NCBI GenBank assembly: GCA_038746285.1
Contig: JBCDKT010000013.1
Span: 13,126-77,125 of the forward strand
Source of the DNA: Bacteroidota bacterium
Lineage (GTDB): Bacteria > Bacteroidota > Rhodothermia > Rhodothermales > JANQRZ01
Reading direction: 5' to 3'
Length of the DNA: 64,000 bases
Position 1 is the stretch's first letter; every line of letters begins with the position of its first letter. The position numbers and the translations under genes are program-made. The notes under the pieces are model-generated. The model was given only the letters and a program-made list of their open reading frames with translations, ran no database searches and was not told the origin of the DNA. This document shows, piece after piece, positions 42,374 to 58,641 of the stretch.

Positions 42374-42468
42374 GGGGGTGCGCCTGCGGCGCGGAATGGG
42401 ATGGCACCTTCGGTGCGGAATGAGAAGAACGGGGGGAATGAACATGGGCGCGAAGCGCGACGGCAGGG

Positions 42469-44307
42469 CTAACTTTGATGGTTTTTCTTGACTCCTCCCA
42501 CTCCTCCCACTCCTCCCACTCCTCCCACTCCGCTCATCCCCGGTCCGCGCTGTCCAGTCCACCGGGCGCGGAGGGCGAAGGCGGCGCGCTTCGGGTCGCG
42601 GGTGCGGGTGAAGACGCCCTTGAGGTTGTCGACCACGCGGCGGACGTTCTGCGGCGTGCGGAAATCAGCGAAGTTCCAGACGTGGGCACCGCAGCACGCC
42701 GGGTGGTTCTCGATCACGTCGAGGTACGCCTCGATGAACGCGGCCTGGTACTCCTCGGTAAACTGGCGCGGGACCGTCGCGTGCGCCCCGGCGAGCGTGT
42801 CGGCCCCGAACTCGCTCACTAGGATCGGCTTGCCGTGGGCGTCCGCGATCTCGTCCAGCTCCTCCTTCAGCAGCCGGGCGGCTTCGCCCAGTTGTCCCGG
42901 CTGCGTGTACCAGCCGTAGTAGCGGTTGACCGAGACGATGTCGCAGAGTGGGTAGAGCGGAACGCCGGGGCCGCGTGCGTGCACCGGGACCGTCACAGGC
43001 CGCGACGGGTCGAGGTCGTGCGTGAGGTCGAAGAGCGGACGCCAGTAGTCAGCGGCAACTTCGTTCGTGGCTTCCTCTTCCCCACTCAGCCCCGGCTCGT
43101 TGCCGATCACCCAGCCGACGACCGACGGGTGGTTGCGGTCGCGGCGGACGAGCTGGCGGATGGCCTCGGCGTGGGCCGCTTGCGTGGCGTCCGTCGTCTT
43201 GCTGTGGTTGAGGCTGACGGCGGGGACCTCGGAGAGGACGAGCACGCCGCGGCGGTCGGCCTCGTCGAGCCAGTCCTCGGCGTAGGGGTAGTGGCTCGTG
43301 CGGAACGAGTTGGCCCCGACCCACCGCAGCAGCCCGAAGTCTTTGACGACGAGCGCCGGGTGGTGCGCCTTGCCGAGGACGGGAAAGTCCTCGTGCTTGC
43401 CGAAGCCGCGCAGAAAGACCGGCTCGCCGTTGAGGAGCAGGCTCGTCCCCTCGACCCGCACCTCGCGGATGCCGGCAGGCACCTCGACGCGGTCCACGGT
43501 CTCGTCTCCCGTGCCGAGGTCGAGCCGGAGGGTGTAGAGAAACGGATCGTCCCGCGACCACAGGCGTGGGGCGGGCACCCGGAGCGTGAGCGTGACGCTG
43601 CCGTCGGCCACGTCCTCGACCGCGTCGGCGACTTCTTCTTCGCCATCGTCGAGCCACGCCGCGACGTACTCCCCATCGCCGTCTATGTCCACCTCGACGC
43701 GGACCGTGCCGCCGAGCGAGGTCTTGACGCGCACGTCCTCGATGAAGGTCTTCGGCAAACCGTAGAGCGTGACCGGGCGGTGGACGCCGCCGTAGGGGAA
43801 GAAGTCGTAGCGGGCGGGCGGGAAGTGCTCGGCCCCGGCCCCGCGCTCCTTCGGCTCGGCGAACTCGTGCGAGGCGATGCCCTGCGGGATGGTCTCGGCG
43901 TCGGCGCGGTTGTCCACGCGGAGTGCAACGGGGACGCTTCGCCCCGGCGTCACGCGGCCCGTGATCTCGACGTCGAACGGCAGAAATGCCGCCGTGCTCT
44001 CACCCACGGGTGTGCCATCGACGAACACCTCGCAGTGGTAGTCCGCCGAGCCGACACGGAGGAAGACGCGCTGCCCAGCCATCGCGCTAGGCACGAATAC
44101 GTCGCGCCCAATCCAGCACGCCCCGACGTAGTCCGCCAGCCCCGCCTCGGCGAGCTGCTCGTTCCAGCTTCCCGGCACGGCGAAGGCGAGCGCCCCATCC
44201 CCGAACGGAGCCTCGGCACCGAGCGCGTCGTCGAGGTCAGGCACGAGGTGCCAGAAGCCGCCTAGGTCGAGCGTGAGGCGGTGGGCGTTGGTGGCCGGTC
44301 GGAGCAT
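42469..44307 (-). CDS. uidA: Beta-glucuronidase (GH2)
   Basis: DFFPYGGVHRPV, GFGKHED, GANSFRTSHYPY, WVIGNE, SEFGAD, NLKGVFTR. Confidence 0.92.
   Translation of the reverse strand: MLRPATNAHRLTLDLGGFWHLVPDLDDALGAEAPFGDGALAFAVPGSWNEQLAEAGLADYVGACWIGRDVFVPSAMAGQRVFLRVGSADYHCEVFVDGTPVGESTAAFLPFDVEITGRVTPGRSVPVALRVDNRADAETIPQGIASHEFAEPKERGAGAEHFPPARYDFFPYGGVHRPVTLYGLPKTFIEDVRVKTSLGGTVRVEVDIDGDGEYVAAWLDDGEEEVADAVEDVADGSVTLTLRVPAPRLWSRDDPFLYTLRLDLGTGDETVDRVEVPAGIREVRVEGTSLLLNGEPVFLRGFGKHEDFPVLGKAHHPALVVKDFGLLRWVGANSFRTSHYPYAEDWLDEADRRGVLVLSEVPAVSLNHSKTTDATQAAHAEAIRQLVRRDRNHPSVVGWVIGNEPGLSGEEEATNEVAADYWRPLFDLTHDLDPSRPVTVPVHARGPGVPLYPLCDIVSVNRYYGWYTQPGQLGEAARLLKEELDEIADAHGKPILVSEFGADTLAGAHATVPRQFTEEYQAAFIEAYLDVIENHPACCGAHVWNFADFRTPQNVRRVVDNLKGVFTRTRDPKRAAFALRARWTGQRGPGMSGVGGVGGVGGVGGVKKNHQS
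42491..42531 (+). repeat. 9-bp tandem repeat (actcctccc)x4, 9-mer family arm N2, inside the uidA C-terminus
   Basis: Perfect 9-bp tandem; encodes GVGGVGGVGGV in uidA. Confidence 0.9.
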
Positions 44308-44322
44308 AGGGGTTGATGGAAT

Positions 44323-44415
44323 GGGCGAGTGGGCGGGGTGGAGAGTGGGCGGAGACGAGTGAAGGCGGTCAGGTCGGGTTCTCCCTCGCCCTTTCTCCCA
44401 TTCGCCCTTTCCGCC
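44323..44415. repeat. 8-mer inverted-array element A ('empty', conserved core)
   Basis: gggcgagt gggcgggg tggagagt gggcggag - core gcggtcaggtcgg - tcgccc tttctccc attcgccc tttccgcc. Confidence 0.9.
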
Positions 44416-45468
44416 TCACCGTTCGACGCGGCCGGAGCCGGAGCCGGTGGCCAGCTTATCGACCTCGGCGGCCGAGGTGAGGTTGGCGTCGCCGGGGATG
44501 GTTTGCTTGAGCGCACTCGCGGCGACGGCGAAGTTCAGCGCATCCTCGGCGTCGTCTTTCGTGAGCAGACCATGGATGAGGCCGGCGGCGAAGCTGTCGC
44601 CCCCGCCGACGCGGTCGACGAGGCGTACGTCGTAGCGGCGACTCCGGGTCGGCGCGGCGAGCGGCGCGGCCGTCCCGGCCCCGCCGAGGAGGAGGGCGCT
44701 CCAGCCGTTGTCGCTCGCCGAGTGAGACTCGCGGAGCGTGATCGCGACGGCGTCGAAGCCGTACTCGGCCTTCAGCTTCTCGGCGAGGCGGGCGTACCCG
44801 GCCGCGTCGAGCTCGGCCTCTTCGGCGGCGGCGGCGCCCGAGCCTTCGGTCGTCACGCCGAGCGAGCGGTCGGCGTCCTCCTCGTTGGCGATGCACACGT
44901 CGACGTACGCCATGAGGGATCGCATCGCGGCGCGGGCCTCGTCGACGGTCCACAGCTTCGCCCGGTAGTTGAGGTCGCACGAGACGGTCACGCCCGCCGT
45001 CTTCGCCGCGCGGCACGCCGCCTCCACCGCCCGGTGCGCCGACGGGCCGAGCGCGGGCGTGATGCCCGTCCAGTGGAACCAATCGGCCCCGTCGAAGACT
45101 CGGGCCCAATCGACTTCATCGGGCTGCATCTCGCTCACGGCCGAGTGCGCCCGGTCGTAGATCACCTTCGAGGGCCGCTGGCTCGCGCCGGTTTCGAGGA
45201 AGTAGATCCCGACCCGCTCGCCGCCGCGCACGACGAAGCGGGTGTCGACGCCGTAGCGCCGGAGGTGGCCCACGGCCGCCTGCCCGACCTCGTGCGCGGG
45301 CAGCTTCGAGACGAACCGGGCGTCGTGCCCGAAGTGGGCGAGCGAGATGGCGACGTTGGCCTCGCCGCCCCCGTAGGTCACGTCGAAGCGGTCGGTCTGC
45401 GTGAAGCGGGAGAAGCCCGGCGCCGAGAGCCGGAGCATGATCTCGCCGAAGGTGACGACGGTGGACAT
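44416..45468 (-). CDS. kdgK: 2-keto-3-deoxygluconate kinase
   Basis: TFGEIMLRL, GGGEANVA, DLNYR.KLW, DRVGGGDSF. Confidence 0.95.
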   Translation of the reverse strand: MSTVVTFGEIMLRLSAPGFSRFTQTDRFDVTYGGGEANVAISLAHFGHDARFVSKLPAHEVGQAAVGHLRRYGVDTRFVVRGGERVGIYFLETGASQRPSKVIYDRAHSAVSEMQPDEVDWARVFDGADWFHWTGITPALGPSAHRAVEAACRAAKTAGVTVSCDLNYRAKLWTVDEARAAMRSLMAYVDVCIANEEDADRSLGVTTEGSGAAAAEEAELDAAGYARLAEKLKAEYGFDAVAITLRESHSASDNGWSALLLGGAGTAAPLAAPTRSRRYDVRLVDRVGGGDSFAAGLIHGLLTKDDAEDALNFAVAASALKQTIPGDANLTSAAEVDKLATGSGSGRVER

Positions 45469-45483
45469 GGGTCAGTTGGAATA

Positions 45484-45513
45484 GGGCGTGGAGGGAATGG
45501 AAGGAAAAGAGGG
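45484..45513 (+). repeat. 9-mer family arm N3
   Basis: gggcgtgga gggaatgga aggaaaaga ggg, abutting the GH28 stop. Confidence 0.8.
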
Positions 45514-46845: not shown

Positions 46846-46875
46846 TCCCTCCCCACCCTCCTTTCCCTCCACGCC
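46836..46875 (-). repeat. 9-mer family arm N4 (inverted relative to N3)
   Basis: ctctccccattccctccccaccctcctttccctccacgcc; reverse complement ggcgtgga gggaaagga gggtgggga gggaatggg gagag. Confidence 0.85.
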
Positions 46876-48688: not shown

Positions 48689-48694
48689 AGGGTT

Positions 48695-48801
48695 GGGAAT
48701 GGGAGAGCGGGCGAGTGGGAGAATGGGCGGGGTGGCGAATGGGTGATGGGAGAACGGCTACTCCTCTTCGCCCTCTCGCCCTCTCGCCCTCTCGCCCTTC
48801 C
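48695..48801. repeat. 8-mer inverted-array element B (C-rich arm lies in the uxaB 3' end)
   Basis: gggagagc gggcgagt gggagaat gggcgggg tggcgaat ... cta ... ttcgccc (tctcgccc)x3. Confidence 0.9.
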
Positions 48802-50302
48802 GTCTGTTCGGCAGAGCATCGAGGAGCATCGGAACGCCTCGGTCGAGGCCCTGCTCGGTGAAGCGGGCGACGGTGTCGGCGAAGGCGGAGCCGACGCCGG
48901 GGAGGTCGGTCAGGTTGTCGCTCCAGAGCGTGCGGTCGGCGAGGACCGAGTGGGCGACGACGGCAGCGGCATCGGGGCGGCGGCGCCACGACTCGCGGAC
49001 GGCATCGGCGCGGTCGTCGGTGAGGAGGTCGGTCGCGGCGAAGACGAGGGGCGAGTCGGACTCCATGCCCGTCGCGGCGCGGTGCAGGAGCAGGAACGCG
49101 GCGAAGCCGAGTGCAACGGCCTCGGGCACGGTACCGGTCTCGGCAAGGGCGCGGACGGCAGGCACGGCGCGGACGTCGAGCTTCATCGTCTGCTGGAGCG
49201 TGATCGAGACGAGGTCGTGCCGGATGAACGGGTTGGCGAAGCGCTCGAGCACGGCGCGGGCGAACGGCGCGGCGATCAACGGGTCGTGCCCCGCCGCTTC
49301 CAGCTCGCGCTCGGTCGCGGGGACGAGCTCGCCGAAGAGCAGGCGGCGGACGAAGGCACCGACGCGCTCGCCTTCGACGGCCTCGCGGACGGTCGCGCAC
49401 CCGCAGCCGAGGGCGACCGGGACGAGGAGCGTGTGGGCCGCGTTGAGCAGCCGCACTTTGCGCAGCCGGTACGGCTCGACGCTCGGCACGACGATCACGC
49501 CTGGCTCGGCTCCATCCGCGAACGGCAGGCGCTCGGCGAGGTCGTCGTTCCCTTCGATGGCCCACAGCCGGTAGACCTCGGCGGCGGTGAGCAGGTCGTC
49601 GCGGTACCCGAGGCTTTCTTGCAACGCCTCGGCGTCCTCCGGCTCGCCGGGGACGATCCGGTCGACGAGGGTGTTGGTGAACGTGCAGTCGTTGCGGACG
49701 AAGGCGGCGAAAGTCTCGCCCCACCCGGCACGCTCACCCCAGCGGAGGACGAGGCTGCAAAGCCGCTCGCCGTTGCCCTCGACGAGCTCCGTCGGGAGCA
49801 CGACGACGCCCGCACCGTCGCCGAGTGCCTCCTGCCGCGCCCGCAGCCACGCCGCGAGCTTGGCCGGGAACGAGCGCGGCGGGGCCGCCTCGGGGTCGTC
49901 CTCTTCGTCCCACGTCAGCCCCACCTCGGTCGTGTTCGAGACGACGAGGCCCACGTTTTCGTCGCGGGCGAGCGCGAGCACGTCGTCCCAGTCGTCCTGC
50001 GCTGAGAGTGCCCGCGCCACCGCGCCGACGACGCGGGTTCGCTCGACCGCCTCGCCGTCTTCGATGCCTCGCACGACGAGCGTGTACAGCCCGTCCTGCT
50101 CGTTGAACGCGACCCCACGCCCGCTCCCGGTCTGGCTCACGACAACGGCGCGGCCGTCCCACGACCCGGCACGATTGGCGAGGTCGAAGGCGTCGTCCAC
50201 CAAGCCGCGGAGCAGCGCGCCCGTGCCGAACTGCACCACGCGGACGGGATGCTCGGGCGGTGCGTCAGGCGCGTGGTGGCGGTCGAGTCGAGGAAGGGGC
50301 AT
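48758..50302 (-). CDS. uxaB: Tagaturonate reductase (altronate oxidoreductase)
   Basis: VVQFGTGALLRG, SNTTE.G, SFPAKL, PTEL..NG, NTLVDRIVPG, KVRLLNAAH; next to uxaA. Confidence 0.88.
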   Translation of the reverse strand: MPLPRLDRHHAPDAPPEHPVRVVQFGTGALLRGLVDDAFDLANRAGSWDGRAVVVSQTGSGRGVAFNEQDGLYTLVVRGIEDGEAVERTRVVGAVARALSAQDDWDDVLALARDENVGLVVSNTTEVGLTWDEEDDPEAAPPRSFPAKLAAWLRARQEALGDGAGVVVLPTELVEGNGERLCSLVLRWGERAGWGETFAAFVRNDCTFTNTLVDRIVPGEPEDAEALQESLGYRDDLLTAAEVYRLWAIEGNDDLAERLPFADGAEPGVIVVPSVEPYRLRKVRLLNAAHTLLVPVALGCGCATVREAVEGERVGAFVRRLLFGELVPATERELEAAGHDPLIAAPFARAVLERFANPFIRHDLVSITLQQTMKLDVRAVPAVRALAETGTVPEAVALGFAAFLLLHRAATGMESDSPLVFAATDLLTDDRADAVRESWRRRPDAAAVVAHSVLADRTLWSDNLTDLPGVGSAFADTVARFTEQGLDRGVPMLLDALPNRRKGERARGREGEEE

Positions 50303-50315
50303 GGAGTGGTCGGTT

Positions 50316-50425
50316 GGGAATGGGAAAAGTGGGCGGGGTGGCGAGTGGGCGGGGTGGCGAACGAAAGCGGTCAGGTCAAATTCGCCCTTTCGCCCTCTCC
50401 CCCATTCGCCCTTTCTCTCGCCCCC
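50316..50425. repeat. 8-mer inverted-array element C ('empty', conserved core)
   Basis: gggcgggg tggcgagt gggcgggg tggcg - aacgaaagcggtcaggtcaa - attcgccc tttcgccc tctcccc attcgccc. Confidence 0.9.
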
Positions 50426-51952
50426 TCACAACGTCACCCCCGCTTTCCAGATCGCGATCTCGCGGTAGTCGTTGGTCTCGTTGCGCGTCCGGCGGCGGCC
50501 CGAGGCAATGGCGAGGAGGTCGGCCACGAAGCGGTCGGCGAGCCCGTCGAGGTCGGCCTCGCCGGTGAGGAGGGGGCCGGCGCTGAAGTCGATCCAGTGC
50601 GGCTTACGCGCGGCGACGGCGTCGTTGGTGGCGATCTTGACGGTCGGGGCAGGGAAGCCGAGGGGCGTACCGCGGCCCGTCGTGAAGAGGACGAGCGCCG
50701 CGCCCGCCGCGGTCAGCGCGGTCGAGGAGACGCCGTCGTTGCCGGGGCTTTCGAGGAGGGCGAGGCCGGGCCGGAAGCCGTCGTGCCCCGGCACACTCGC
50801 GCGCCCGGTGTAGCGGACGACCTCGGCCACGGGGGCCCGCCCGCCCTTCTGGATCGCGCCGAGCGACTTCTCCTCCAGCGTCGTCAGCCCGCCGTCTTTG
50901 TTGCCGGGCGAGGGGTTCTCGTAGACCGGCTGGTTGTGGTCGAGGAAGTAGCGCTTGAAGTCGTTCACGAGGTCGACCGTCCGCTCGAACACGCCCCGGT
51001 CAGTGGCGCGTTGCATCAGCACGCGCTCGGCCCCGAACATCTCGGGGACCTCGGTGAGAATCCCGCGCCCGCCCCACGCCGCGACGCGGTCGGCGACGCG
51101 CCCGACGAGCGGGTTGGCCGTCACGCCCGAGAATCCGTCCGAGCCGCCGCACTTGAACCCGAGCACGAGGTCCGCCGCCGAGACCGTCTCCCGTTGGTCC
51201 GACCGCATGAGGCCCACGATCTCCTCGGCGAGCGTCGTCCCCTCCTCCACCTCGTCGAGGACGTGCTGCGCGGCGAAGCCCCGGACGCGTCCGTCGGTCC
51301 GGTCGGCCTCCTGGAGGAAGGCGTCGAGCTGGTTGTTCTCGCAGCCGAGGCCGAGCACGAGGACGCCACCCGCGTTCGGGTGCGCCGCGAGGCGGGCGAG
51401 GAGCTGGCGCGTGTGCCCGAGGTCGTCGCCGAGTTGGGAGCAGCCGTAAGGGTGGGCGAAGGCGTGGGCGCCGTCGATCACGCCCTCGCCTTCGGGACCG
51501 AACCGGGCGTCGACGGCGCGGGCGATCCGCTCGGCGGCGCGGTTGACGCAGCCGACGGTGTTGAGCACCCACAGCTCGTTGCGCGTCCCGACGCGCCCGT
51601 CCGGGCGGCGGTAGCCCGCCCACGTCGGCACGTCGCGCGCGGCGGGCCGGTCGGTGTCGACAGGATCGTAGCTGTATTCGTCCTCGCCGCTCAGCCTGGT
51701 GGCGAGGTTATGGCTGTGAACCCACTCGCCCGGCGCGATGGCCTCAGTCGCGCGGCCAATCGGGAAGCCGTATTTGACCACGGCGTCGCCCTCGGCGTGT
51801 GGGACGAGCGCGATTTTGTGCCCGGCCGGCACGTCCGCGCGCAGCGTCACGCCAAGCACCTCGGCTCCTGCTTCCAGCGCCTCGACGGCGACGGCGACGG
51901 TGTCGGTCTCGTGGATACGGAGCGCGCGCGGCGCGGTGAGCACGTCCGGCAT
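50426..51952 (-). CDS. uxaA: Altronate dehydratase
   Basis: SAF domain (GHKIAL..VKYG.PIG), GTRNE, HPYGCSQLGDD, KCGGSDGFSG.TANP, NPSPGNK.GGLTTLEEKSLG. Confidence 0.95.
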   Translation of the reverse strand: MPDVLTAPRALRIHETDTVAVAVEALEAGAEVLGVTLRADVPAGHKIALVPHAEGDAVVKYGFPIGRATEAIAPGEWVHSHNLATRLSGEDEYSYDPVDTDRPAARDVPTWAGYRRPDGRVGTRNELWVLNTVGCVNRAAERIARAVDARFGPEGEGVIDGAHAFAHPYGCSQLGDDLGHTRQLLARLAAHPNAGGVLVLGLGCENNQLDAFLQEADRTDGRVRGFAAQHVLDEVEEGTTLAEEIVGLMRSDQRETVSAADLVLGFKCGGSDGFSGVTANPLVGRVADRVAAWGGRGILTEVPEMFGAERVLMQRATDRGVFERTVDLVNDFKRYFLDHNQPVYENPSPGNKDGGLTTLEEKSLGAIQKGGRAPVAEVVRYTGRASVPGHDGFRPGLALLESPGNDGVSSTALTAAGAALVLFTTGRGTPLGFPAPTVKIATNDAVAARKPHWIDFSAGPLLTGEADLDGLADRFVADLLAIASGRRRTRNETNDYREIAIWKAGVTL

Positions 51953-51965
51953 GGCTATGGGGTGA

Positions 51966-52479
51966 GGGCGAGTGGGCGAAAGGGCGAGTGGGCGTTAGAG
52001 GTTGGATTCTCCGTTTGCGTTGTATGGTGTGGGGTCTTCGCGGACGAGAGACGAGGGGCCGCACCACTGTTCCGGGTAGCGCATCATCTTGACGAGACCG
52101 GCGGCGAGGTGGTCGCACAAATCGACGAGCACATCGTGCCTCGCAGCGTTGAGGTAGCCACACTCGAGAGCTACATCGAGCCATACGCTCGTCTCTTCCG
52201 CTTCGCCGAGGGCGTCGGTGAGCTTGCTGACGAAATGTTTGGGGTAGCGACGTTTCGCCCATGCCTCGGCTAGGTTCGCCGAGACGCTGCGTGACGAGCG
52301 CCGCGCTTGATCGGTGAGGGCATATTGCTCCTCCTTCGGCCACGCCTTCGACGCGGCGAAGACCGCCTTCCGAAGCTCAACGGATCGTTCGTAAACGCGC
52401 AGTTCTTTGACTCGCATGGTCTGTCTCATCAGGTTGTCAGGTTCTCTTTCCGCCCCTCCGCCCATTCGCCCTCTCGCCC
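51966..52479 (-). mobile_element. Putative four-helix-bundle cassette bounded by inverted 8-bp arrays (element D, 'filled')
   Basis: Left arm gggcgagt gggcgaaa gggcgagt gggcg (51966-94) abuts the stop; right arm tttccgccc ctccgccc attcgccc tctcgccc (52447-79); enclosed gene is visibly lower in GC. Confidence 0.6.
51995..52429 (-). CDS. Four helix bundle protein (23S rRNA-IVP / Avd-like family)
   Basis: Start ATG 52429 or 52417; L.VY..S...., P.EEQYALTDQ.RRSSRSV.AN.AEAW.KRRY..HFVSKLTDA.GEA.ET.VWL..A.ECGY. Confidence 0.92.
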   Translation of the reverse strand: MRQTMRVKELRVYERSVELRKAVFAASKAWPKEEQYALTDQARRSSRSVSANLAEAWAKRRYPKHFVSKLTDALGEAEETSVWLDVALECGYLNAARHDVLVDLCDHLAAGLVKMMRYPEQWCGPSSLVREDPTPYNANGESNL

Positions 52480-52481
52480 GT

Positions 52482-53987
52482 TCATCCTCCCAGCCTCGGT
52501 AGCGTCGTGCCCGCGAGGAGCGGGACGAACACGACGGCGAGGAGCGTGACGAGAAGCGCGAAGGCGAGGTTCAGCCAGACACCGGCGCGGGCCATCTGCC
52601 CGACGGTCAGGTAGCCGCTCCCGTAGACGATCGCGTTGGGCGGCGTGGCGACGGGGAGCATGAACGCGCAGCTTGCGGCGACGGTCGCCGGGACGAGGAG
52701 GAGGAGCGGCGCGGTGCCGGTCGAGACGGCGAGGGCTGCGAGAACCGGGAGGAAAGCGGCAGCGGTCGCCGTGTTGCTCGTCAGTTCGGTCAGGAAGACG
52801 ATCACCACGACGACGATCCCGACGAGGACAAACGTCGGGAGCGCGCCGAAGGCGGCGAGGGCTTCGCCGATCCACGAGGCGAGGCCGGTACTGGAAATAG
52901 CCGAAGCGAGCGAGAGGCCGCCGCCGAAGAGGAGCAGGATGCCCCACGGGAGCGTCTTCGCCGTCGCCCAGTCGAGCGCCCGCACCGCGTGCCCGCCAGC
53001 GGTCCGCACCGGGAGCGCGAAGAGCGCGAGCGCGCCGAGCATCGCCAGGCCGGGATCGGAGAGGCCAGGCACGACGGCTTCGAGGAGGGGACGCGTGATC
53101 CACAGCAGCGCCACAATCCCGAAGACGGCCCCGACCGTCCACTCGCCCCGGCTGACGGGTCCGAGCGCCGCCAGCCGCTCGCGGATAAACGCCTGCCCGC
53201 CCGGAATCTCCGGCAGCCGCACCGGGAAGACGACACGCACGAGGAGCGTGTACGCGAGCGCGATTCCAATCACCACCAGCGGCAGCCCGACCACGAGCCA
53301 CCCCGCGAACGACACCTCGACGCCGTAGGTCTCCTCGACGAAGCCTGCGAAGAACGCGTTCGTCGGCGTCCCGATGAGCGTCCCGAGGCCGCCGACCGAG
53401 CAGGCGTAGGCGACCCCGAGCATCAGCACGAGCGCGAACCGTCGGTCCTCGGCCTCGGTCCCGACCTCGTCGCGGTGGGCGAGTTCAGCCACCGAGAGCG
53501 CAATCGGGAGCATCATCACAGCCGTCGCGGTGTTCGAGATGCCCATCGAGAGCGCGGCGGCGGCGAGCATCAACCCGAGCACGATCCGCCGCGGCCGCGT
53601 CCCGACGCGCGCCACGACCGAGAGCGCGAGCCGCCGGTGGAGGTCCCACCGCTCCATCCCCTTCGCCAGGAGGAACCCGCCGAGGAAGAGGAAGATGATC
53701 GGGCTCGCGTAGGGGGCCGCCGCGTCCCGGATGCCGGCCACGCCCAGGAGCGGGAACGCCGCGAGCGGGACGAGCGAGGTCGCCGCAATCGGCAGGGCCT
53801 CGGTCATCCACCACACCGCCATCAGCACGGCGACCGCCGCCGCGCCCCATCCGGCCTCGCCCAATCCCTCCGGCGCGGGCAGCGCGAGCAGCACGCCGAA
53901 CGCCGCCAGCCCCGCGACGAGGCCGACGCGCTGCGCCGCCGTCGTCCCGGTCTCGGGCGGAGGGGAAACGGTGGGGGTCGGGGTCAT
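52482..53987 (-). CDS. DASS/SLC13 sodium-coupled di-/tricarboxylate symporter
   Basis: Start ATG 53987; WWMTEALP, SMGISNTAT..MMLP, GTLIGTP, ELTSNTA, AFMLPVATPPNA. Confidence 0.92.
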   Translation of the reverse strand: MTPTPTVSPPPETGTTAAQRVGLVAGLAAFGVLLALPAPEGLGEAGWGAAAVAVLMAVWWMTEALPIAATSLVPLAAFPLLGVAGIRDAAAPYASPIIFLFLGGFLLAKGMERWDLHRRLALSVVARVGTRPRRIVLGLMLAAAALSMGISNTATAVMMLPIALSVAELAHRDEVGTEAEDRRFALVLMLGVAYACSVGGLGTLIGTPTNAFFAGFVEETYGVEVSFAGWLVVGLPLVVIGIALAYTLLVRVVFPVRLPEIPGGQAFIRERLAALGPVSRGEWTVGAVFGIVALLWITRPLLEAVVPGLSDPGLAMLGALALFALPVRTAGGHAVRALDWATAKTLPWGILLLFGGGLSLASAISSTGLASWIGEALAAFGALPTFVLVGIVVVVIVFLTELTSNTATAAAFLPVLAALAVSTGTAPLLLLVPATVAASCAFMLPVATPPNAIVYGSGYLTVGQMARAGVWLNLAFALLVTLLAVVFVPLLAGTTLPRLGG

Positions 53988-54003
53988 GGGTTTGGTTTTG
54001 CGT

Positions 54004-54090
54004 GGGTGAGGGGGCGAGAGGGCGGGGTGGCGAGCGAAAGTGGTCAGGTCAGATTCGCCCTTTCGCCCTTTCTCCCATTCGCCCTCTCTC
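54004..54090. repeat. 8-mer inverted-array element E ('empty', conserved core)
   Basis: gggcgaga gggcgggg tggcg - agcgaaagtggtcaggtcag - attcgccc tttcgccc tttctccc attcgccc tctctc. Confidence 0.9.
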
Positions 54091-54091
54091 A

Positions 54092-55336
54092 TCACTGTCG
54101 GTCGGCGTAGGCTTTGGCGGCGGCTTCGATCGCGCCCTCCTTCGGGACGAGGCCGAGGCCGGGCGCTTCGGGCACGGCGATCATCCCGTTCTCGGGCAGC
54201 ACCTGGGTCTCGAAGAGGTCCCACAGTTCGGGAGCCTTGTCCGGGCCGGGGTGCTCCTGCGGGCGGTCGGCGCGGAGGACCGAGGCGACGTAGTGGAGGT
54301 GCGCCGCCGTGCCGAGCGTCGGGCGCGTCGAGTGGACCGCGATCGGGAGGTCGAAGGCGGAGCAGAGCGCGGCGATGTGGCGGCCCTCGGTCAGCCCGCC
54401 CGCCCGGATCAGGTCGGGGTTGACGACGTCGGGGCGGCCCTGCACGATGAGGTCGCGGAACTGCCAGCGCGTGTACTCGTGCTCGCCGGCGGCGACCTGG
54501 ATGCCGTCGAGCGCGTCCGAGACCTCGGCGTGGTCGGCGTAGTTGGTGTAGCCGACCGGCTCCTCGAAGACCGAGACGTTGTACTCCTCGTAGAGCCGCC
54601 GCCCGACCTCAATCGCGCGCGCGGCCGAGTACCCGTTGTTGGCGTCGACGTAGAGCGGAAACTCGTCGCCGATCTCGGAGCGGATCGCGGCGACGACCTC
54701 GAACGTCGGGTCGTCCACGGGGTCGACGTTGGTCTGCCGGATGTCCATCCGCGCCTTGACAGCCTTGAACCCGATCTCCACGAACCCGGCGGCGATGCGG
54801 GCCATGTCGGCGGGCGTCCGGTCGCCGCCGTCGCGGGAGAACGAGCCGTAGACGGGGATCTCTTTGCGGTACGCCCCGCCGATGAGCTGGTAGCAGGGCC
54901 GCCCGAGCACCTTGCCGCGCGCGTCCCACAGCGCGAGGTCGATGCCGGAGATCGCGCTCGTGATGAGGCCGCCGCGGCCCATGTCGTCCGAGCGGAAGTA
55001 GAGGTCGGTGAAGAGGGGGTCGGCGTCGAAGAGGTCACGGCCCTCGACCTGCCGGTCGATGCGGTCGATGAGGGCGTCGACGATGCCCGGCCCGGCGCCG
55101 GCGCGGTCGGCTTCACCCCAACCTGTGACGCCCGCGCTCGTGCGGACGCGCGTGAAGAGCGCCGCCCCGACGTAGAAGGCGTCCACCTCGGTGACGGTGA
55201 CCGGCGCGACGCCCCGCAGCGGCCCGTCGTAGACCGTCGGGCCCGCCGAAGGCTCGGCGGCGAAGGCGGCACTCGGCGCGGCGGCCGCGAGCGGCAGCGC
55301 GGCGGAGGACCGGAGGAAGTGGCGGCGCGAAGGCAT
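54092..55336 (-). CDS. Mandelate racemase/muconate lactonizing enzyme family dehydratase with Tat signal
   Basis: Start ATG 55336 (MPSRRHFLRSSAALPLAAAA); SGIDLALWD..GK.LG.P.YQL.GG, KARMD, VDAN, FEEP, GEHE, NPD, H. Confidence 0.88.
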   Translation of the reverse strand: MPSRRHFLRSSAALPLAAAAPSAAFAAEPSAGPTVYDGPLRGVAPVTVTEVDAFYVGAALFTRVRTSAGVTGWGEADRAGAGPGIVDALIDRIDRQVEGRDLFDADPLFTDLYFRSDDMGRGGLITSAISGIDLALWDARGKVLGRPCYQLIGGAYRKEIPVYGSFSRDGGDRTPADMARIAAGFVEIGFKAVKARMDIRQTNVDPVDDPTFEVVAAIRSEIGDEFPLYVDANNGYSAARAIEVGRRLYEEYNVSVFEEPVGYTNYADHAEVSDALDGIQVAAGEHEYTRWQFRDLIVQGRPDVVNPDLIRAGGLTEGRHIAALCSAFDLPIAVHSTRPTLGTAAHLHYVASVLRADRPQEHPGPDKAPELWDLFETQVLPENGMIAVPEAPGLGLVPKEGAIEAAAKAYADRQ

Positions 55337-55351
55337 GGCGTCGGGTTTGTC

Positions 55352-55460
55352 GGCGAGTGGGCGGGGTGGCGAAAGGGCGGAGGGGCGAGTGGGCGGGGGG
55401 CAAACGAAAGCGGTCAGGTCGGATTCTCCCATTCGCCCTCTCCCCCATTCGCCCATTCTC
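55352..55460. repeat. 8-mer inverted-array element F ('empty', conserved core)
   Basis: gggcgggg tggcgaaa gggcggag gggcgagt gggcgggg - aacgaaagcggtcaggtcgg - attctccc attcgccc tctccccc attcgccc attctc. Confidence 0.9.
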
Positions 55461-56583
55461 ATCGTCGGCGGGCGCGGTCGGCGGCGTCCTGCTCGGCGCG
55501 GACCGCGCGGTGGCGGCGCTCGTTGAGGCCGGGGTCCTCGCCCATCAGGACGAACAGGCGGATCGCGCCGTCCTGGTTCGCCGTCGCCACAAGCGCCCCG
55601 TTGCGGGAGACGTCCACGTACTCGGCCTGGTCGCCGATGTGGACCTGGAGCGCGGTGTAGACGCGGTCCGGCCCGAGGATGTCGTCGAGCCTGAACATCC
55701 GGAGGTACGGGTCGTTGCCGACGGTCACGAGGTACTGTCCGTCGGGCGTCCACTGGACCGACTCGATCTTGTGCCCGCTCCGGTCGAAGCGTCGGACGAG
55801 CTCGCCGGAGGGAAACGCGTAGAGGTGCAGCAGCCCCTCGGTGTCGCCGGTGGCGAGGTACTGCCCGTCAGGCGAGAACTGGACGGTGATCGAGTGGTGG
55901 TACGGGTTGTCGTCTGAGAGCGAGATGTCCTCGTCGATGTCGAGCACGAGTTGCTCGGTCTCGACCTCCCAGACTTTGAGAAGGCCGTCGTTGCCGGTCG
56001 CGGCGAGGTAGCGGTCGTCCTCCGAGAAGTCCACCTCGTTGGCGGTGTGGCCGAGGTCGAAGAGCTTGACCTGCTCCAGCGCGGGCATGGCGTAGACGCG
56101 GACGAGGCCCTGGCGCTCGCCGTCGGCGGTCCGGCTGTACTCTTCGCCCGCGGCGAGAAAGCGCCCGTCGTGGCTCCACGCGAGGCCGTCGATGCCGGCC
56201 GTCAGCGTCGCCTCCCTCATGGTCTCGCCGGTCTCGGCGTCGAAGACGCGGAGCACGCGGTCCTCGCTCACAGACGCGACGGTGCTCCCGTCGGGGTTCC
56301 ACGCGACCCGCTCGATCTCGGCCGGCAGCGTGCGCCGCCACAGCTCCGCGCCGTCGGAGGTCCGCCACACGATCACGGTGTAGTCGAACTTCGTCCCCGA
56401 GACGAGTCGCGTCCCGTCGTACGAGAACTCGACCGACTCGACCGACCCGGCCTCGCCGTGGACGTCGGCGAGGCGCGTCCAGACGGGGTTGAGCGCGAGC
56501 CGCTTGTCGTCGTACCGAGCGACAGCCTGGGGCTGGGCGAGCACCGGCGCAGCGGTGAGCAAGGCGAGGGCGAGTATGCGCAT
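55459..56583 (-). CDS. Secreted WD40 beta-propeller protein
   Basis: Signal MRILALALLTAAPVLAQ; repeated VxFS.DG..L.SG/T motifs. Confidence 0.85.
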   Translation of the reverse strand: MRILALALLTAAPVLAQPQAVARYDDKRLALNPVWTRLADVHGEAGSVESVEFSYDGTRLVSGTKFDYTVIVWRTSDGAELWRRTLPAEIERVAWNPDGSTVASVSEDRVLRVFDAETGETMREATLTAGIDGLAWSHDGRFLAAGEEYSRTADGERQGLVRVYAMPALEQVKLFDLGHTANEVDFSEDDRYLAATGNDGLLKVWEVETEQLVLDIDEDISLSDDNPYHHSITVQFSPDGQYLATGDTEGLLHLYAFPSGELVRRFDRSGHKIESVQWTPDGQYLVTVGNDPYLRMFRLDDILGPDRVYTALQVHIGDQAEYVDVSRNGALVATANQDGAIRLFVLMGEDPGLNERRHRAVRAEQDAADRARRR

Positions 56584-56586
56584 GGA

Positions 56587-57879
56587 TCAGTACCCGAAGA
56601 GCGACGGGAGCCAGAGCGAGAGCGCCGGCAGGAGCGTCGTGAGGGCGAGGCCGACGAGCATCGCGAGGAAGAGCGGGAGGAGGGGGCGGACCACTTTGGC
56701 GATCGTCGTCTCGGCCACGCCGACGCCGACGAAGAGCACGCTCCCCACCGGCGGCGTGCACAGCCCGATGCAGAGGTTCAGCACCATCACGATCCCGAAG
56801 TGCACCGGGTCCATCCCGAGCTCGACCGCGACGGGCAGGAAGATGGGCGTGAAGATGAGGATCGCCGGCGTCATGTCCATGAACGTCCCGACGGCCAGGA
56901 GCACAAGGTTGATGAGGAGGAACACGACGAGCGGGTTGTCAACCGCCGCGACGGCCGCCGCCACGCTCTGCGGTAGGTTGACGTAGGCCATGATCCAACT
57001 GAGCGCAATCGAGACCGCGATCAGGAGCATCACAATCGCTGTCGTCGCGGCGCTGTCGAGCAGGATCTGCGGGAGGTCGCGCACGCCGATGCCGCGGTAG
57101 ACGAAGGCCAGCACCCCGGCGTAGAGCACGGCGACGGCCGCCGCCTCGGTCGCCGTGAAGAGGCCCGCCACGATCCCGCCAATCACGACGACGAGCAGGA
57201 ACAGGCTCGGGAGCGCTTCCACGAACCGGCGGGCGGCGACGGCGACCGGCAGGCGCTCGTCGGTCGGGTAGCCGCGCCGCCACGCGATCACGCCCGCGAC
57301 CGCCATGAGCAGGAAGCCGACCAAGATGCCCGGCCCGTAGCCCGCGAGGAAGAGGGCCGCAATCGAGACGCCGCCCGAGGCGAGCGAGTAGACGATGAGC
57401 ACGTTCGAGGGCGGGATGACGAGGCCGACCGTCGCGCTCGTGATGTTGACCGCCGCCGCGTAGTCGCGGTCGTAGCCCTCGTCGACCATCCGCGGGCCGA
57501 CCGTACTCCCAATCGCACTCGCGGCGGCGACCGCGCTCCCGGAGATCGCGCCGAAGAGCATCGAGGCGAGGACGTTGACAAACGCGAGGCCGCCGGGGAG
57601 CGTCCCGAGGAGCGCCTTCGCGAAGTCGATCAGGCGCCGGGCGATCCCGCCCCGGTTCATGAGCTGCCCGGCGAGGATGAAGAACGGAATCGCGAGGAGC
57701 GTGAACGAGTCGAGGCCCGTCGCCATGCGCTGCGCGACCGTCGTGAGCGCTGCCACCGGCTCGACCGTCAGCAGGATCGTCGCGACCGTCGAAAGACCGA
57801 TGGCAAACGCGACCGGCACGCCGAGCCCGAGGAGCGCGACGAAGGTGACGACGAGGACGACGACAGCGAGCGCTTCCAC
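56587..57879 (-). CDS. dctM: TRAP transporter large permease
   Basis: GTG start 57879; LLAIPFFILAG.LM, FGAISGS, VIPPS, LCIGLCTPPVG. Confidence 0.93.
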   Translation of the reverse strand: MEALAVVVLVVTFVALLGLGVPVAFAIGLSTVATILLTVEPVAALTTVAQRMATGLDSFTLLAIPFFILAGQLMNRGGIARRLIDFAKALLGTLPGGLAFVNVLASMLFGAISGSAVAAASAIGSTVGPRMVDEGYDRDYAAAVNITSATVGLVIPPSNVLIVYSLASGGVSIAALFLAGYGPGILVGFLLMAVAGVIAWRRGYPTDERLPVAVAARRFVEALPSLFLLVVVIGGIVAGLFTATEAAAVAVLYAGVLAFVYRGIGVRDLPQILLDSAATTAIVMLLIAVSIALSWIMAYVNLPQSVAAAVAAVDNPLVVFLLINLVLLAVGTFMDMTPAILIFTPIFLPVAVELGMDPVHFGIVMVLNLCIGLCTPPVGSVLFVGVGVAETTIAKVVRPLLPLFLAMLVGLALTTLLPALSLWLPSLFGY

Positions 57880-58527: not shown

Positions 58528-58641
58528 GGCGTGGAGGGAGTGGAGGGTCGGGAGGGAGTGGGCGAGTGGGCGGAGGGGCGAGTGGGCGGAGGGGCGCTGT
58601 GCTCATCTCCCACTCGCCCTCTCTCCCATTCGCCCATTCTC
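58528..58641. repeat. Hybrid element G: 9-mer array joined to an 8-mer inverted-array element
   Basis: ggcgtgga gggagtgga gggtcggga gggagt | gggcgagt gggcggag gggcgagt gggcggag ggg ... ctccc actcgccc tctctccc attcgccc attctc. Confidence 0.88.

Follow-up and report, generated by a model that had tools for sequence, protein, structure and literature searches.

The locus examined here raises the question of how a small gene for a four-helix-bundle (4HB) protein came to stand inside a hexuronate operon, enclosed by inverted arrays of octamers, and of what relates the gene to its arrays. It lies in the window, a stretch of 64,000 nucleotides from the genome of an uncultured Rhodothermales MAG, and all the features located below are on the minus strand. 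The gene had been described as wedged between uxaA and a DASS gene, and the Pfam identities of both neighbours agree. Upstream, a DASS (Na+/sulfate-type) symporter gene occupies 52482..53987 (PF00939, Na_sulph_symp, E=2e-78), and downstream of the cassette lies uxaA, of the altronate dehydratase family (50426..51952; PF20629, E=2e-91, and PF04295). G009 is the sole relative with this operon, with a uxaA orthologue of 86% amino acid identity and a divergence from the window of dS ~0.45, and there DASS and uxaA abut. In the BLAST synteny, positions 51970/52501 of the window correspond to 23092/23079 of G009, leaving a 12-nt gap in G009, and base-level alignment against this empty junction delimits a cassette of ~519 nt (51973..52491). 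The empty junction of G009 thus identifies the cassette as a block inserted into the last DASS codons of the operon, and the insertion postdates the split from this nearest operon-bearing relative. The junction is not filled identically in all relatives, and G009 supplies the empty site that the preliminary description had proposed to look for.

The current DASS stop codon, TGA (52484..52482), and the last three codons of the gene fall within inserted DNA. The original 3' end persists on the other side of the cassette as a relic, CTCGCCCTCACCCCATAGCC (51953..51972), homologous to the DASS tail of G009 (..SALTP*); joined to DASS without the insert, it continues the reading frame as LALTP up to the stop codon TAG (51957..51955), which the uxaA ATG follows after 2 nt. 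The locus offers a comparison of filled and empty site resolved to single bases, plus the relic of the interrupted host gene. No target-site duplication beyond 2 nt was detected at this site or at nine other filled/empty sites, and the single ORF of the cassette leaves no recombinase or transposase encoded in it. A near-identical cassette at a second site was not found, and metagenome pattern scans for the junction returned nothing. The earlier suggestion of a discrete unit without its own transposase is borne out by the empty site in G009 and by other cassettes gained or lost whole among the congeners. The DASS relic adds one unit-like repeat to the C-arm. Templating of the arms from the target was also considered and rejected: at this site the native sequence is similar to one arm unit, and no such likeness was seen in the remaining filled/empty pairs.

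Read in the mRNA sense, the G-rich arm begins 2 nt past the DASS stop. This 5' arm is a purine-rich octamer array, (GGGCGANN)x4, at 52450..52479, which runs from 52479 to 52450 as GGGCGAGA GGGCGAAT GGGCGGAG GGGCGG, and its four G3+ tracts fit the G-quadruplex motif. The 3' arm is a pyrimidine-rich octamer array, CGCCCACT CGCCCTTT CGCCCA (51973..51994); the C-rich run CGCCCACT CGCCCTTT CGCCCACT CGCCC follows the 4HB stop codon TAA (51997..51995) without a gap. The two arms pair in the predicted minimum-free-energy fold of the RNA (z=-3.9), forming a stem of ~28 bp, with interruptions, at the base of the insert, which it seals, and their complementarity score is 36, against a median of 17 and a 95th percentile of 23 for the flanks of 377 random host genes, only one of which (1/377) reached 30 or more. 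The inverted 8-bp arrays first noticed by inspection are therefore real and enclose the gene. Between the 5' arm and the gene lies an A-rich leader without a Shine-Dalgarno sequence, AAAGAGAACCTGACAACCTGATGAGACAGACC (52418..52449); the start codon is ATG, with a second in-frame ATG upstream at 52465, within the array. Neither a sigma-70 promoter nor an intrinsic terminator was found within the cassette.

The gene itself (51995..52417) encodes 140 amino acids and matches PF05635 (E=7e-28, 97.3 bits against a cut-off of 33.8) and TIGR02436 (E=2e-26, 92.1 bits against a cut-off of 24), as the preliminary assignment to the 23S-IVP/four-helix-bundle proteins had anticipated. Its lower GC content, also remarked upon at that stage, amounts to 61.3%, with a GC3 of 0.73, compared with host means of 69.7% and 0.91. 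The translation contains the motif R-x3-S-x3-N-x2-E (RSSRSVSANLAE; context DQARRSSRSVSANLAEA), and the family motif has been given as GxxRxxxSxxxNxxE (Zhang et al. 2014 and Lin et al. on Xcc0516, quoted in PMC3936711). With a dN/dS of 0.11-0.16 relative to its nearest homologues, the protein appears to be maintained by purifying selection. The homologues of known structure, 2GSC and 2RLD, have five chains each, and by analogy the 4HB protein is probably a pentameric nucleic-acid binder. It has a fold related to that of bAvd of diversity-generating retroelements (DGRs), with distant sequence similarity, and the two would have in common a pentameric, nucleic-acid- or RT-binding four-helix bundle. 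Structures have been solved for the PF05635/TIGR02436 family, and to our knowledge its function outside DGRs is not known. Among 5.8 billion proteins, 4,515 match the query at E<=1e-20 and the closest shows 75% identity, on contigs where the arms differ from those of the window cassette. The genome contains 11 PF05635 genes including this one, of which the nearest paralogue stands at a dS of 1.6. A PADLOC search gave no defence-system match for the cassette and a phage search gave zero matches to the protein; among the matches listed (12 of 20), the relatives on mobile replicons were all on cyanobacterial plasmids, at 42-47% identity.

The cassette is surrounded by hairpins of similar construction that carry no gene. 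Hairpin A (44308..44418) consists of a G-arm, the core GACCTGACC and a C-arm, and fills a stop-to-start junction; hairpin C (50303..50428) has the core GACCTGACCGCTTTCG, and hairpins E (53990..54094) and F (55340..55462) bear the core as well, F resembling the 3' end of the cassette interior most closely. Two further octamer hairpins, one of GGGCGAGA/GGGAGAAT units (48689..48835) and one of GGGCGAGT units (58531..58641), have no core. All six are absent in G009, as are all the junction hairpins of the operon (9/9). The preliminary description had counted six related gene-less elements within 12 kb; six are present, but they span ~14 kb. Hairpins A, C, E and F are 79-92% alike and share a core of non-repetitive sequence, which is found again at each end of the cassette interior. 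The leader includes GAGAACCTGAC, which resembles this core (shuffle tests, p 0.003-0.1 depending on the element), and the last 14 nt before the region of the 4HB stop codon, GGAGAATCCAACCT, match the core of F at 13/14 positions. A simple equation of core and leader was rejected, the leader match being weak and the 3' end of the ORF matching better.

Throughout the genome, 336 periodic arrays were counted, with a period of 7-9 nt (8 at the cassette) and more than 20 unit types. Array pairs are purine-first in 91 cases and pyrimidine-first in 12, and roughly 100-170 periodic hairpins occupy operon junctions; of 46 hairpins, 39 separate genes that run in the same direction, with only a few nt to the stop and start codons. 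Their loops are varied: a 60-nt module, which contains TTG-N22-TAnnTTTC, a sequence resembling a Bacteroidota promoter, is present in 119 copies spread over at least 12 arm types; other loops hold small cores or, in the C20 cassette, an extra CdiI_3 gene. No Rfam family, rRNA included, was detected in the window, and none for the hairpins or the 60-nt loop. A single genome thus combines 11 cassettes with over 300 arrays and a loop module in 119 copies, and its congeners differ cassette by cassette. Selection on the stems as RNA was tried as an explanation and rejected, since G-U-compatible mismatches numbered 52 in the sense and 38 in the antisense direction, with 61 others of transversion type, and the mean folding energy of the hairpins was equal on both strands; in the four core-bearing local hairpins the antisense strand folds better.

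Taken together, the PF05635 gene and its short leader occupy the apex of a purine-first hairpin of inverted 8-nt arrays, and the cassette is one of several alternative loop contents of periodic hairpins at operon junctions. Comparison of loops and arms indicates that these hairpins act as a general scaffold in which conserved loops are joined to varied arms. The reading that we favour, and consider probable with appreciable room for doubt, is that of a cassette akin to the intervening sequences (IVS) of 23S rRNA, housed at the apex of purine-first periodic hairpins, which form a general class. Placement would be a DNA-level event in which the repair, recombination or replication machinery of the host acts at the tip of the hairpin or where arrays are homologous, and would be independent of any element-encoded enzyme. 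In Coxiella burnetii, the ORF of the 23S rRNA IVS (S23p) belongs to PF05635, its complementary flanks form a long stem and excision of the IVS by RNase III has been shown (Warrier et al. 2016, PMC4990558); ORF-bearing IVS have been proposed to be acquired selfish elements without a mobility enzyme (PMC4990558). The window cassette likewise has a PF05635 ORF, stem-forming flanks, a site in a transcribed unit and no mobility enzyme. By analogy with the excised IVS, its RNA stem might make the insert largely harmless to the operon that holds it, and RNase III, whose action is established for the Coxiella IVS, may process the cassette transcript. Unlike the rRNA IVS, however, the window cassette lies where a transporter gene ends, within an operon of protein-coding genes, rather than in an rRNA helix, and its arms are periodic 8-nt arrays which also occur as the ~100-170 gene-less hairpins. 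Ralph and McClelland are said to have reported ORF-bearing 23S rRNA IVS in Leptospira in 1993. No description of the armed PF05635 layout outside rRNA was found in the searchable literature, and this type of insert, a gene within a hairpin, is widespread yet has hardly been described, and is related to the rRNA intervening sequences.

The preliminary description had interpreted the locus along the lines of RAYT and REP, as an autonomous element with MITE-like derivatives whose protein binds the arrays. In such a partnership a pentamer would bind its own arrays and, with a trans-acting host enzyme, spread both the cassette and the gene-less hairpins. Several observations suit such a partnership. 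In a comparison with its 9 nearest relatives, arrays of the GGGCG type are expanded only in the genome with a GGGCG-armed gene (183 matches versus 0-9 in eight genus and family relatives); by eye, which is an impression and not the outcome of unit clustering, each of the 11 paralogues has its own arm type, and most types recur as gene-less hairpins. Single-linkage clustering of array units chained everything, and canonical-unit counts were used instead. The core of the four neighbouring hairpins at both ends of the cassette interior also favours a link between gene and arrays, as do syntenic sites across genera, where arms are conserved together with the gene, and some non-syntenic homologues that retain the same arms (L046/L061). 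Against it, the arms of other non-syntenic homologues, 74-80% identical, are unrelated, and G023 has 83 GGGCG-array matches and no PF05635 gene (the genome is 93% complete and the arrays lie at contig ends). Abundant types such as GGTGAGAC (13) and GGGAGTGT (7) have no partner 4HB gene here, the 60-nt loop module stands between arms of at least 12 types, with no 4HB gene closer than 1.5 kb to any of its 119 copies, the 4HB protein has no catalytic domain, and cassette-derived sequence was found in four gene-less copies only, all in the window operon. Of the original reading, then, the discrete unit, the same-arm gene-less hairpins and the GGGCG expansion stand, and G023, the partnerless arrays and the reassortment of arms and loops speak against the rest; we regard the partnership as possible but rather unlikely. 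Arms of this kind accompany most relatives of the protein in other phyla: of 66 relatives, about 40 reach an arm score of at least 30, and these come from at least five phyla. Within this genome only 3/11 paralogues pass the strict threshold, and 5/11 exceed the control 95th percentile.

The same comparison can be extended to the known systems. Like REP/BIME sequences and their RAYT genes (REPINs), the elements described here comprise imperfect intergenic hairpins found genome-wide and a single-copy gene flanked by inverted repeat copies. BIMEs combine inverted repeats with conserved central motifs. RAYT is a Y1 HUH transposase, in contrast to the non-catalytic four-helix bundle encoded by the flanked gene here; the arms of the latter are tandem arrays, and the link between gene and repeat family appears to fail in at least one genome, G023. 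With MITEs the hairpins have in common their shortness, a non-autonomous appearance, inverted termini and presence/absence between close relatives; in contrast to MITEs, the cassette has no target-site duplication and the loop is conserved while the termini vary, and we know of no parent transposon with a transposase for hairpins of the window type. A broader proposal, to which we give only a small share of our confidence, is that purine-first periodic-array hairpins constitute a self-propagating class of bacterial repeat which settles in operon junctions and has exchangeable loop cargo, and in which PF05635 pentamers would be the candidate array-binding factor and the rRNA IVS a special case. 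If true, the array-binding reading would give a function to PF05635, a very large orphan family.

Coincidence between arrays and gene would require that slippage generated intercistronic arrays, serving as REP-like stabilizers of mRNA or as G-quadruplex repeats, next to an unrelated, horizontally acquired gene. The 336 arrays in the intergenic DNA of this genome, the arrays without a gene in G023, the similar G-rich arrays of Xanthomonas and Nostoc (Rehm 2015, PMC4692102) and the extension of arrays from stop to start codons, as selective trimming predicts, would all fit. Nevertheless, the order purine arm, gene, pyrimidine arm occurs at 1/377 host genes and at most PF05635 relatives in five phyla. 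Arm and gene are moreover gained or lost as units: four congeners differ at the nine other sites in whether they carry the complete cassette, and where it is missing there are no arrays either. The unique non-repetitive core common to the four local hairpins implies that these were copied, not grown in place. We consider coincidence improbable on these grounds.

A further possibility is that the lineage of G009 inherited the cassette and all the junction hairpins from a common ancestor and lost them by clean deletion. No outgroup was found for the DASS-uxaA junction: in the four loci where uxaA is 60-65% identical, it has no adjoining DASS. The polarity of the insertion rests on the relic DASS tail and on the lineage-specific expansion of the arrays. 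Hairpins and palindromes are prone to deletion, and the cassette at the C33 site is common to this genome and G009 and absent in four congeners, which means that losses or parallel gains do occur. Deletion in G009 would, however, demand nine or more independent exact losses in one operon, and each of the eight relatives at genus and family level has next to none of this array type, a distribution that polarizes the differences between the window and G009 as gains. The local hairpins, 79-92% alike, stand against the neutral divergence of dS ~0.45, and the old DASS tail and stop persist downstream of the cassette. A loss in G009 is thus a slim prospect. Finally, that the gene is the Avd accessory gene of a DGR remnant is barely credible and effectively refuted for the window locus, as the Avd profile NF033474 matches weakly (18.7 bits, far under its equivalog cut-off of 80), phrog_3206 ('Avd protein of DGR') also weakly (E=4.5e-6), and the locus, unlike bAvd loci of DGRs, has neither reverse transcriptase nor a template/variable repeat (TR/VR) pair, is flanked by uxaA and DASS and gave zero phage matches.

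The favoured reading, an IVS-like cassette in a periodic hairpin, also bears on repeats already published from other bacteria. The G-quadruplex-forming, G-rich heptamer repeats of Xanthomonas and Nostoc often form convergent inverted pairs, with 70-75 per Xanthomonas genome (Rehm et al. 2015, PMC4692102). The window arrays resemble them in their short period, their G3 tracts (at least four, with loops of 1-7 nt), their non-coding nature and their position between co-directional genes, and both are found near stop codons in the sense orientation and before start codons in the antisense one, often as convergent pairs; they differ in their period of 8 (7-9 genome-wide) and in their more than 20 unit types. 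That study links the repeats neither to PF05635 nor to loop contents or insertion polymorphism (Rehm 2015, PMC4692102). Its supplement places a GGGAATC array beside XCC0516 (2GSC), between bccP and its neighbour (Rehm 2015, PMC4692102). XCC0516 is itself a PF05635 gene, and it connects the published "quadruplex" repeats of Xanthomonas to this family.

The 4HB gene belongs to a genuine IVS-like four-helix-bundle cassette that was inserted recently. PF05635 (23S_rRNA_IVP) recognises its ORF (52417..51995, minus strand; 423 nt, 140 aa) at E=7e-28, and TIGR02436 (four helix bundle protein) does so at E=2e-26. The ORF lies in a long minus-strand hexuronate operon, with the gene of a DASS-type symporter on one side and uxaA, of the altronate dehydratase family, on the other. 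Read in mRNA sense along the minus strand, the DASS stop codon TGA (52484..52482) stands 2 nt before the G-rich 5' arm, GGGCGAGA GGGCGAAT GGGCGGAG GGGCGG (52479..52450), followed by an A-rich leader of 32 nt without Shine-Dalgarno sequence, the ORF, the 3' arm CGCCCACT CGCCCTTT CGCCCACT CGCCC..., which begins immediately 3' of the ORF's TAA, and the uxaA ATG (51952). One octamer underlies both arrays, as inverted copies, and the arm complementarity score is 36; among 377 random host genes scored on their flanks, the median was 17 and the 95th percentile 23, and a single gene reached 30. Folding of the complete cassette RNA is predicted to pair the arms with one another, enclosing a domain of ~430 nt (MFE -227.9 kcal/mol, z=-3.9). 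The gene has a GC content of 61.3%, below the 69.7% of its host (GC3 0.73 vs 0.91), and dN/dS values of 0.11-0.16 indicate that its protein is under purifying selection. The preliminary description of a low-GC gene wedged between uxaA and DASS and enclosed by inverted octamer arrays was thus borne out, as were the six related gene-less elements nearby, which occupy other operon junctions and likewise have G- and C-arms built on this octamer type.

Among 40 relatives, a close uxaA (86% amino acid identity) occurs only in G009, a member of the same family but another genus, on a contig whose synteny covers window 38.3-63.6 kb (nucleotide identity 72-89%). The DASS|uxaA site spans 530 nt in the window vs 12 nt in G009, where the symporter ends as ...LPDLSALTP with a TAA stop 2 nt ahead of the uxaA ATG; the junction looked for in the preliminary description is therefore empty in this relative. 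The stretch homologous to that end, CTCGCCCTCACCCCATAGCC, persists downstream of the cassette in the window, and removing the insert in silico restores an in-frame DASS tail, ..LPRLALTP, followed by TAG 2 nt before the ATG. Comparison of both junctions thus indicates that ~519 nt (51973-52491) were inserted as a unit within the last DASS codons, present termination being at a TGA within the inserted DNA. No target-site duplication was visible beyond 2 nt between filled and empty sites. No outgroup was found for this junction, and the difference is read as a gain on three grounds. All nine junction hairpins of the window operon are missing in G009, their places being taken by short C-rich spacers; counts of the pattern GGGCGNNNGGGCGNNNGGGCG are 183 in the source genome (reversed-pattern control, 2) vs 0-9 in each of eight genus or family relatives; and four local hairpins sharing a core are mutually 79-92% identical, while window-G009 synonymous divergence is ~0.45. 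The hexuronate operon is common only to these two genomes and, since uxaA is missing from all four congeners, is itself accessory within the genus. Two genes adjacent in the window (56520-56587) are separated by an extra 2.7 kb in G009 (C4, 16482-19188), which also has the array downstream of the GH28 gene and a shortened upstream one (window 45485-45496, 46864-46875).

The nearest in-genome paralogue of the gene, on contig C55, is 74% identical with a dS of 1.6, a divergence far older than the split from G009, and a search of 5.8 billion protein clusters gave 75% identity for the nearest protein. The closest loci belong to Rhodothermales and Rubricoccaceae MAGs, and these nearest relatives are armed too, with GGAGGG-type rather than GGGCG arms. 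Most database relatives lie on 1-2 kb contigs, probably also because arrays break assembly.

The cassette belongs to a widespread architecture that, as far as could be found, is unpublished. By eye, 9 or 10 of the 11 PF05635 genes in the source genome (69% GC, 4.08 Mb, 134 contigs) have a purine-rich array upstream and an inverted partner downstream, the unit being different in each. Arms on other family members had been anticipated, and this held for about 40 of 66 relatives (Rhodothermales, Anaerolineae, Verrucomicrobiota, Bacteroidales, Planctomycetota and others) with arm scores of at least 30, far above shuffles, but less well within the genome, where three of 11 paralogues reached that score and five exceeded the control 95th percentile, the remaining arms comprising only about two units. 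Arm units are lineage-dependent, for instance CAGTGAT in Anaerolineae and GGACGGTG in Verrucomicrobiota. GC3 of the 11 genes ranges from 0.56 to 0.83, at or below the host 5th percentile except for one copy (0.83), and is low even in copies syntenic across genera.

The source genome has 11 PF05635 copies, its four congeners have 7, 2, 4 and 7, and five further members of the family have 0-7. Orthologous sites were located with concatenated flank-protein queries and their junction sequences compared. At nine sites the genomes differ: some hold the complete arm-plus-gene unit, and the rest show either a short native spacer or a stop codon overlapping the next start codon, with zero arrays. The C34 site is filled in G000 (the source genome) and G003 and empty in G001 and G002; the C33 site is filled in G000 and G009 and empty in G002-G004, whose flanking genes overlap as TGATG. 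The C81 site is filled in G000, G001, G007 and G008, whereas in G002 and G003 the flanking genes enclose no PF05635 gene, their flank matches being separated by 20 and 8 nt. Gaps of intermediate length hold unrelated sequence rather than same-arm solo hairpins. Filled sites that are syntenic keep their arm unit across genera, as with GGAAGAGC at the C20 site. At the C81 site (L001 vs L120 of G001, L103 of G008 and L110 of G007) PF05635 genes occupy the same intergenic position in four genomes with flanks of 78-88% nucleotide identity, the cassettes being largely or wholly unalignable and their arm units different. In G027, from another family, the arms have the very unit of the source genome's (GGCTGTTGGCT). 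The pattern suggests that cassettes have been replaced at a fixed site. The C20 cassette (L005 1869-2381; C20 ~33701-34213, minus strand) carries in its loop, after the 4HB stop codon and before the 3' arm, an orphan CdiI_3 immunity gene (PF18616, E=6e-27); its orthologue in congener G002 lacks that gene (~500 nt missing).

The hairpins extend well beyond this gene family. Intergenic DNA of the source genome holds 336 non-redundant arrays with periods of 7-10 and over 20 unit types, counts that, like those of cassettes, are lower bounds since contigs ending inside octamer arrays indicate that arrays break assembly; the underlying gene map came from a purpose-made codon-usage caller with approximate start codons. 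Arrays stand at many contig ends (e.g. C13:84042-84130, C37:22-118, C40:8-80, C84:6-78, C97:64-168). Neighbouring arrays at most 150 nt apart are purine-first in 91 cases vs 12 pyrimidine-first, and a stricter census gave 33 G-first hairpins and no C-first ones. Hairpins lie between co-directional genes in 39 of 46 cases, typically a few nucleotides from stop and start codons, a placement precisely between cistrons. Irrespective of arm unit, most carry one conserved loop module of ~60 nt (consensus GTtGGCGCggAGCGCGacGGnCTCGgTAacTTTctcGGcTTTtCTTncCaCtCc), which as GTTGGCGCGGAGCGCGACGGTCTCGGTAACTTTCTCGGCTTTTCTTTCCAC occurs in purine-first hairpins with at least 12 different arm units. Searches with nhmmer found 119 copies in the genome, 118 of them intergenic and none within 1.5 kb of any 4HB gene; its orientation relative to flanking genes is mixed (42 vs 34). 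In 76 copies the left flank is rich in purines and the right one in pyrimidines. The single window copy is at 42439-42495. The module matches no Rfam family, is essentially absent across 640 kb of relatives' loci, and contains TTG-N22-TAnnTTTC, similar to a Bacteroidota-type promoter. GGGCG-armed hairpins, in turn, have at least four different loops. A loop shared across arm types, varied loops within one type and the CdiI_3 gene in the C20 cassette show that loops, the 4HB gene included, behave as alternative cargo of a single hairpin system.

The preliminary description had instead proposed a RAYT/REP-like partnership, an autonomous 4HB element with MITE-like gene-less derivatives, which is only partly supported. 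The lineage-specific GGGCG-array expansion does co-occur with a GGGCG-armed gene, and the four neighbouring hairpins have a common non-repetitive core, GACCTGACCGCTTTCG, found nowhere else in the genome, to which both ends of the cassette interior are related: GAGAACCTGAC, directly after the 5' arm, resembles it (p of 0.003-0.1), and GGAGAATCCAACCT, the last ORF codons, matches element F (a gene-less hairpin, 55340-55462) at 13 of 14 positions, a score reached by 0 of 300 shuffles. These core-like sequences look like a direct repeat around the ORF module. Against the partnership, arms and loops reassort across hairpins, abundant array types such as GGTGAGAC (13) and GGGAGTGT (7) lack a partner gene, and G023, which belongs to the order but to a different family, combines 83 hits to GGGCG arrays with zero PF05635 genes at E<=0.001, although a genome 93% complete with many arrays at contig ends limits that absence; it is either a natural counter-example to a strict partnership or an assembly blind spot. 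Its GGGCG(T/A)NT octamer arrays are very long (e.g. C50:21296-21601, C14:26639-26731). The expected co-variation of arrays with protein phylogeny was also mixed. Arm sharing climbs from ~1% of pairs below 60% protein identity to 94% at 80% or above, but the sharing pairs are mostly syntenic orthologues; the non-syntenic pair L046/L061 shares arms, L046/L060 (80% identity) does not, and neither do the window gene and its 74% relatives. As to diversity-generating retroelements, the protein is no Avd equivalog, at 18.7 bits vs a cut-off of 80, and no RT is present.

The cassette carries no enzyme. Host repair, recombination or replication may have put it in place, using hairpin apices or array homology, which would explain the missing target-site duplication and recombinase. 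By analogy with the Coxiella IVS, excised by RNase III (PMC4990558), an RNA stem might insulate the insert. The purine-first rule may merely keep the pyrimidine-rich leaders native to the clade's junctions, as at those of G009. No RNA-strand-specific signature was found in the hairpins and the local ones fold better on the antisense strand, so that a DNA-level structure is at least as likely the relevant form.

Full-text literature searches by family names turned up nothing describing such armed cassettes outside rRNA. Its nearest counterparts among described systems are the 23S rRNA IVSs that bear an ORF, together with G-rich heptamer repeats known from Xanthomonas and Nostoc; convergent inverted pairs of the latter number 70-75 per Xanthomonas genome (PMC4692102). 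The PDB relatives of the protein within PF05635 are 2GSC (Xcc0516) and 2RLD, five chains each. Repeat 15 in supplementary file 2 of Rehm et al. 2015, a GGGAATC array (Xcc 622956-622983), lies 6 nt from bccP (XCC0517) and overlaps the start of XCC0516, the PF05635 protein of structure 2GSC, a link left undiscussed there (PMC4692102); the cassette design thus appears to exist in a bacterium that is cultured and amenable to genetics. Members of PF05635 have been recorded in cas loci as well (PMC3936711).
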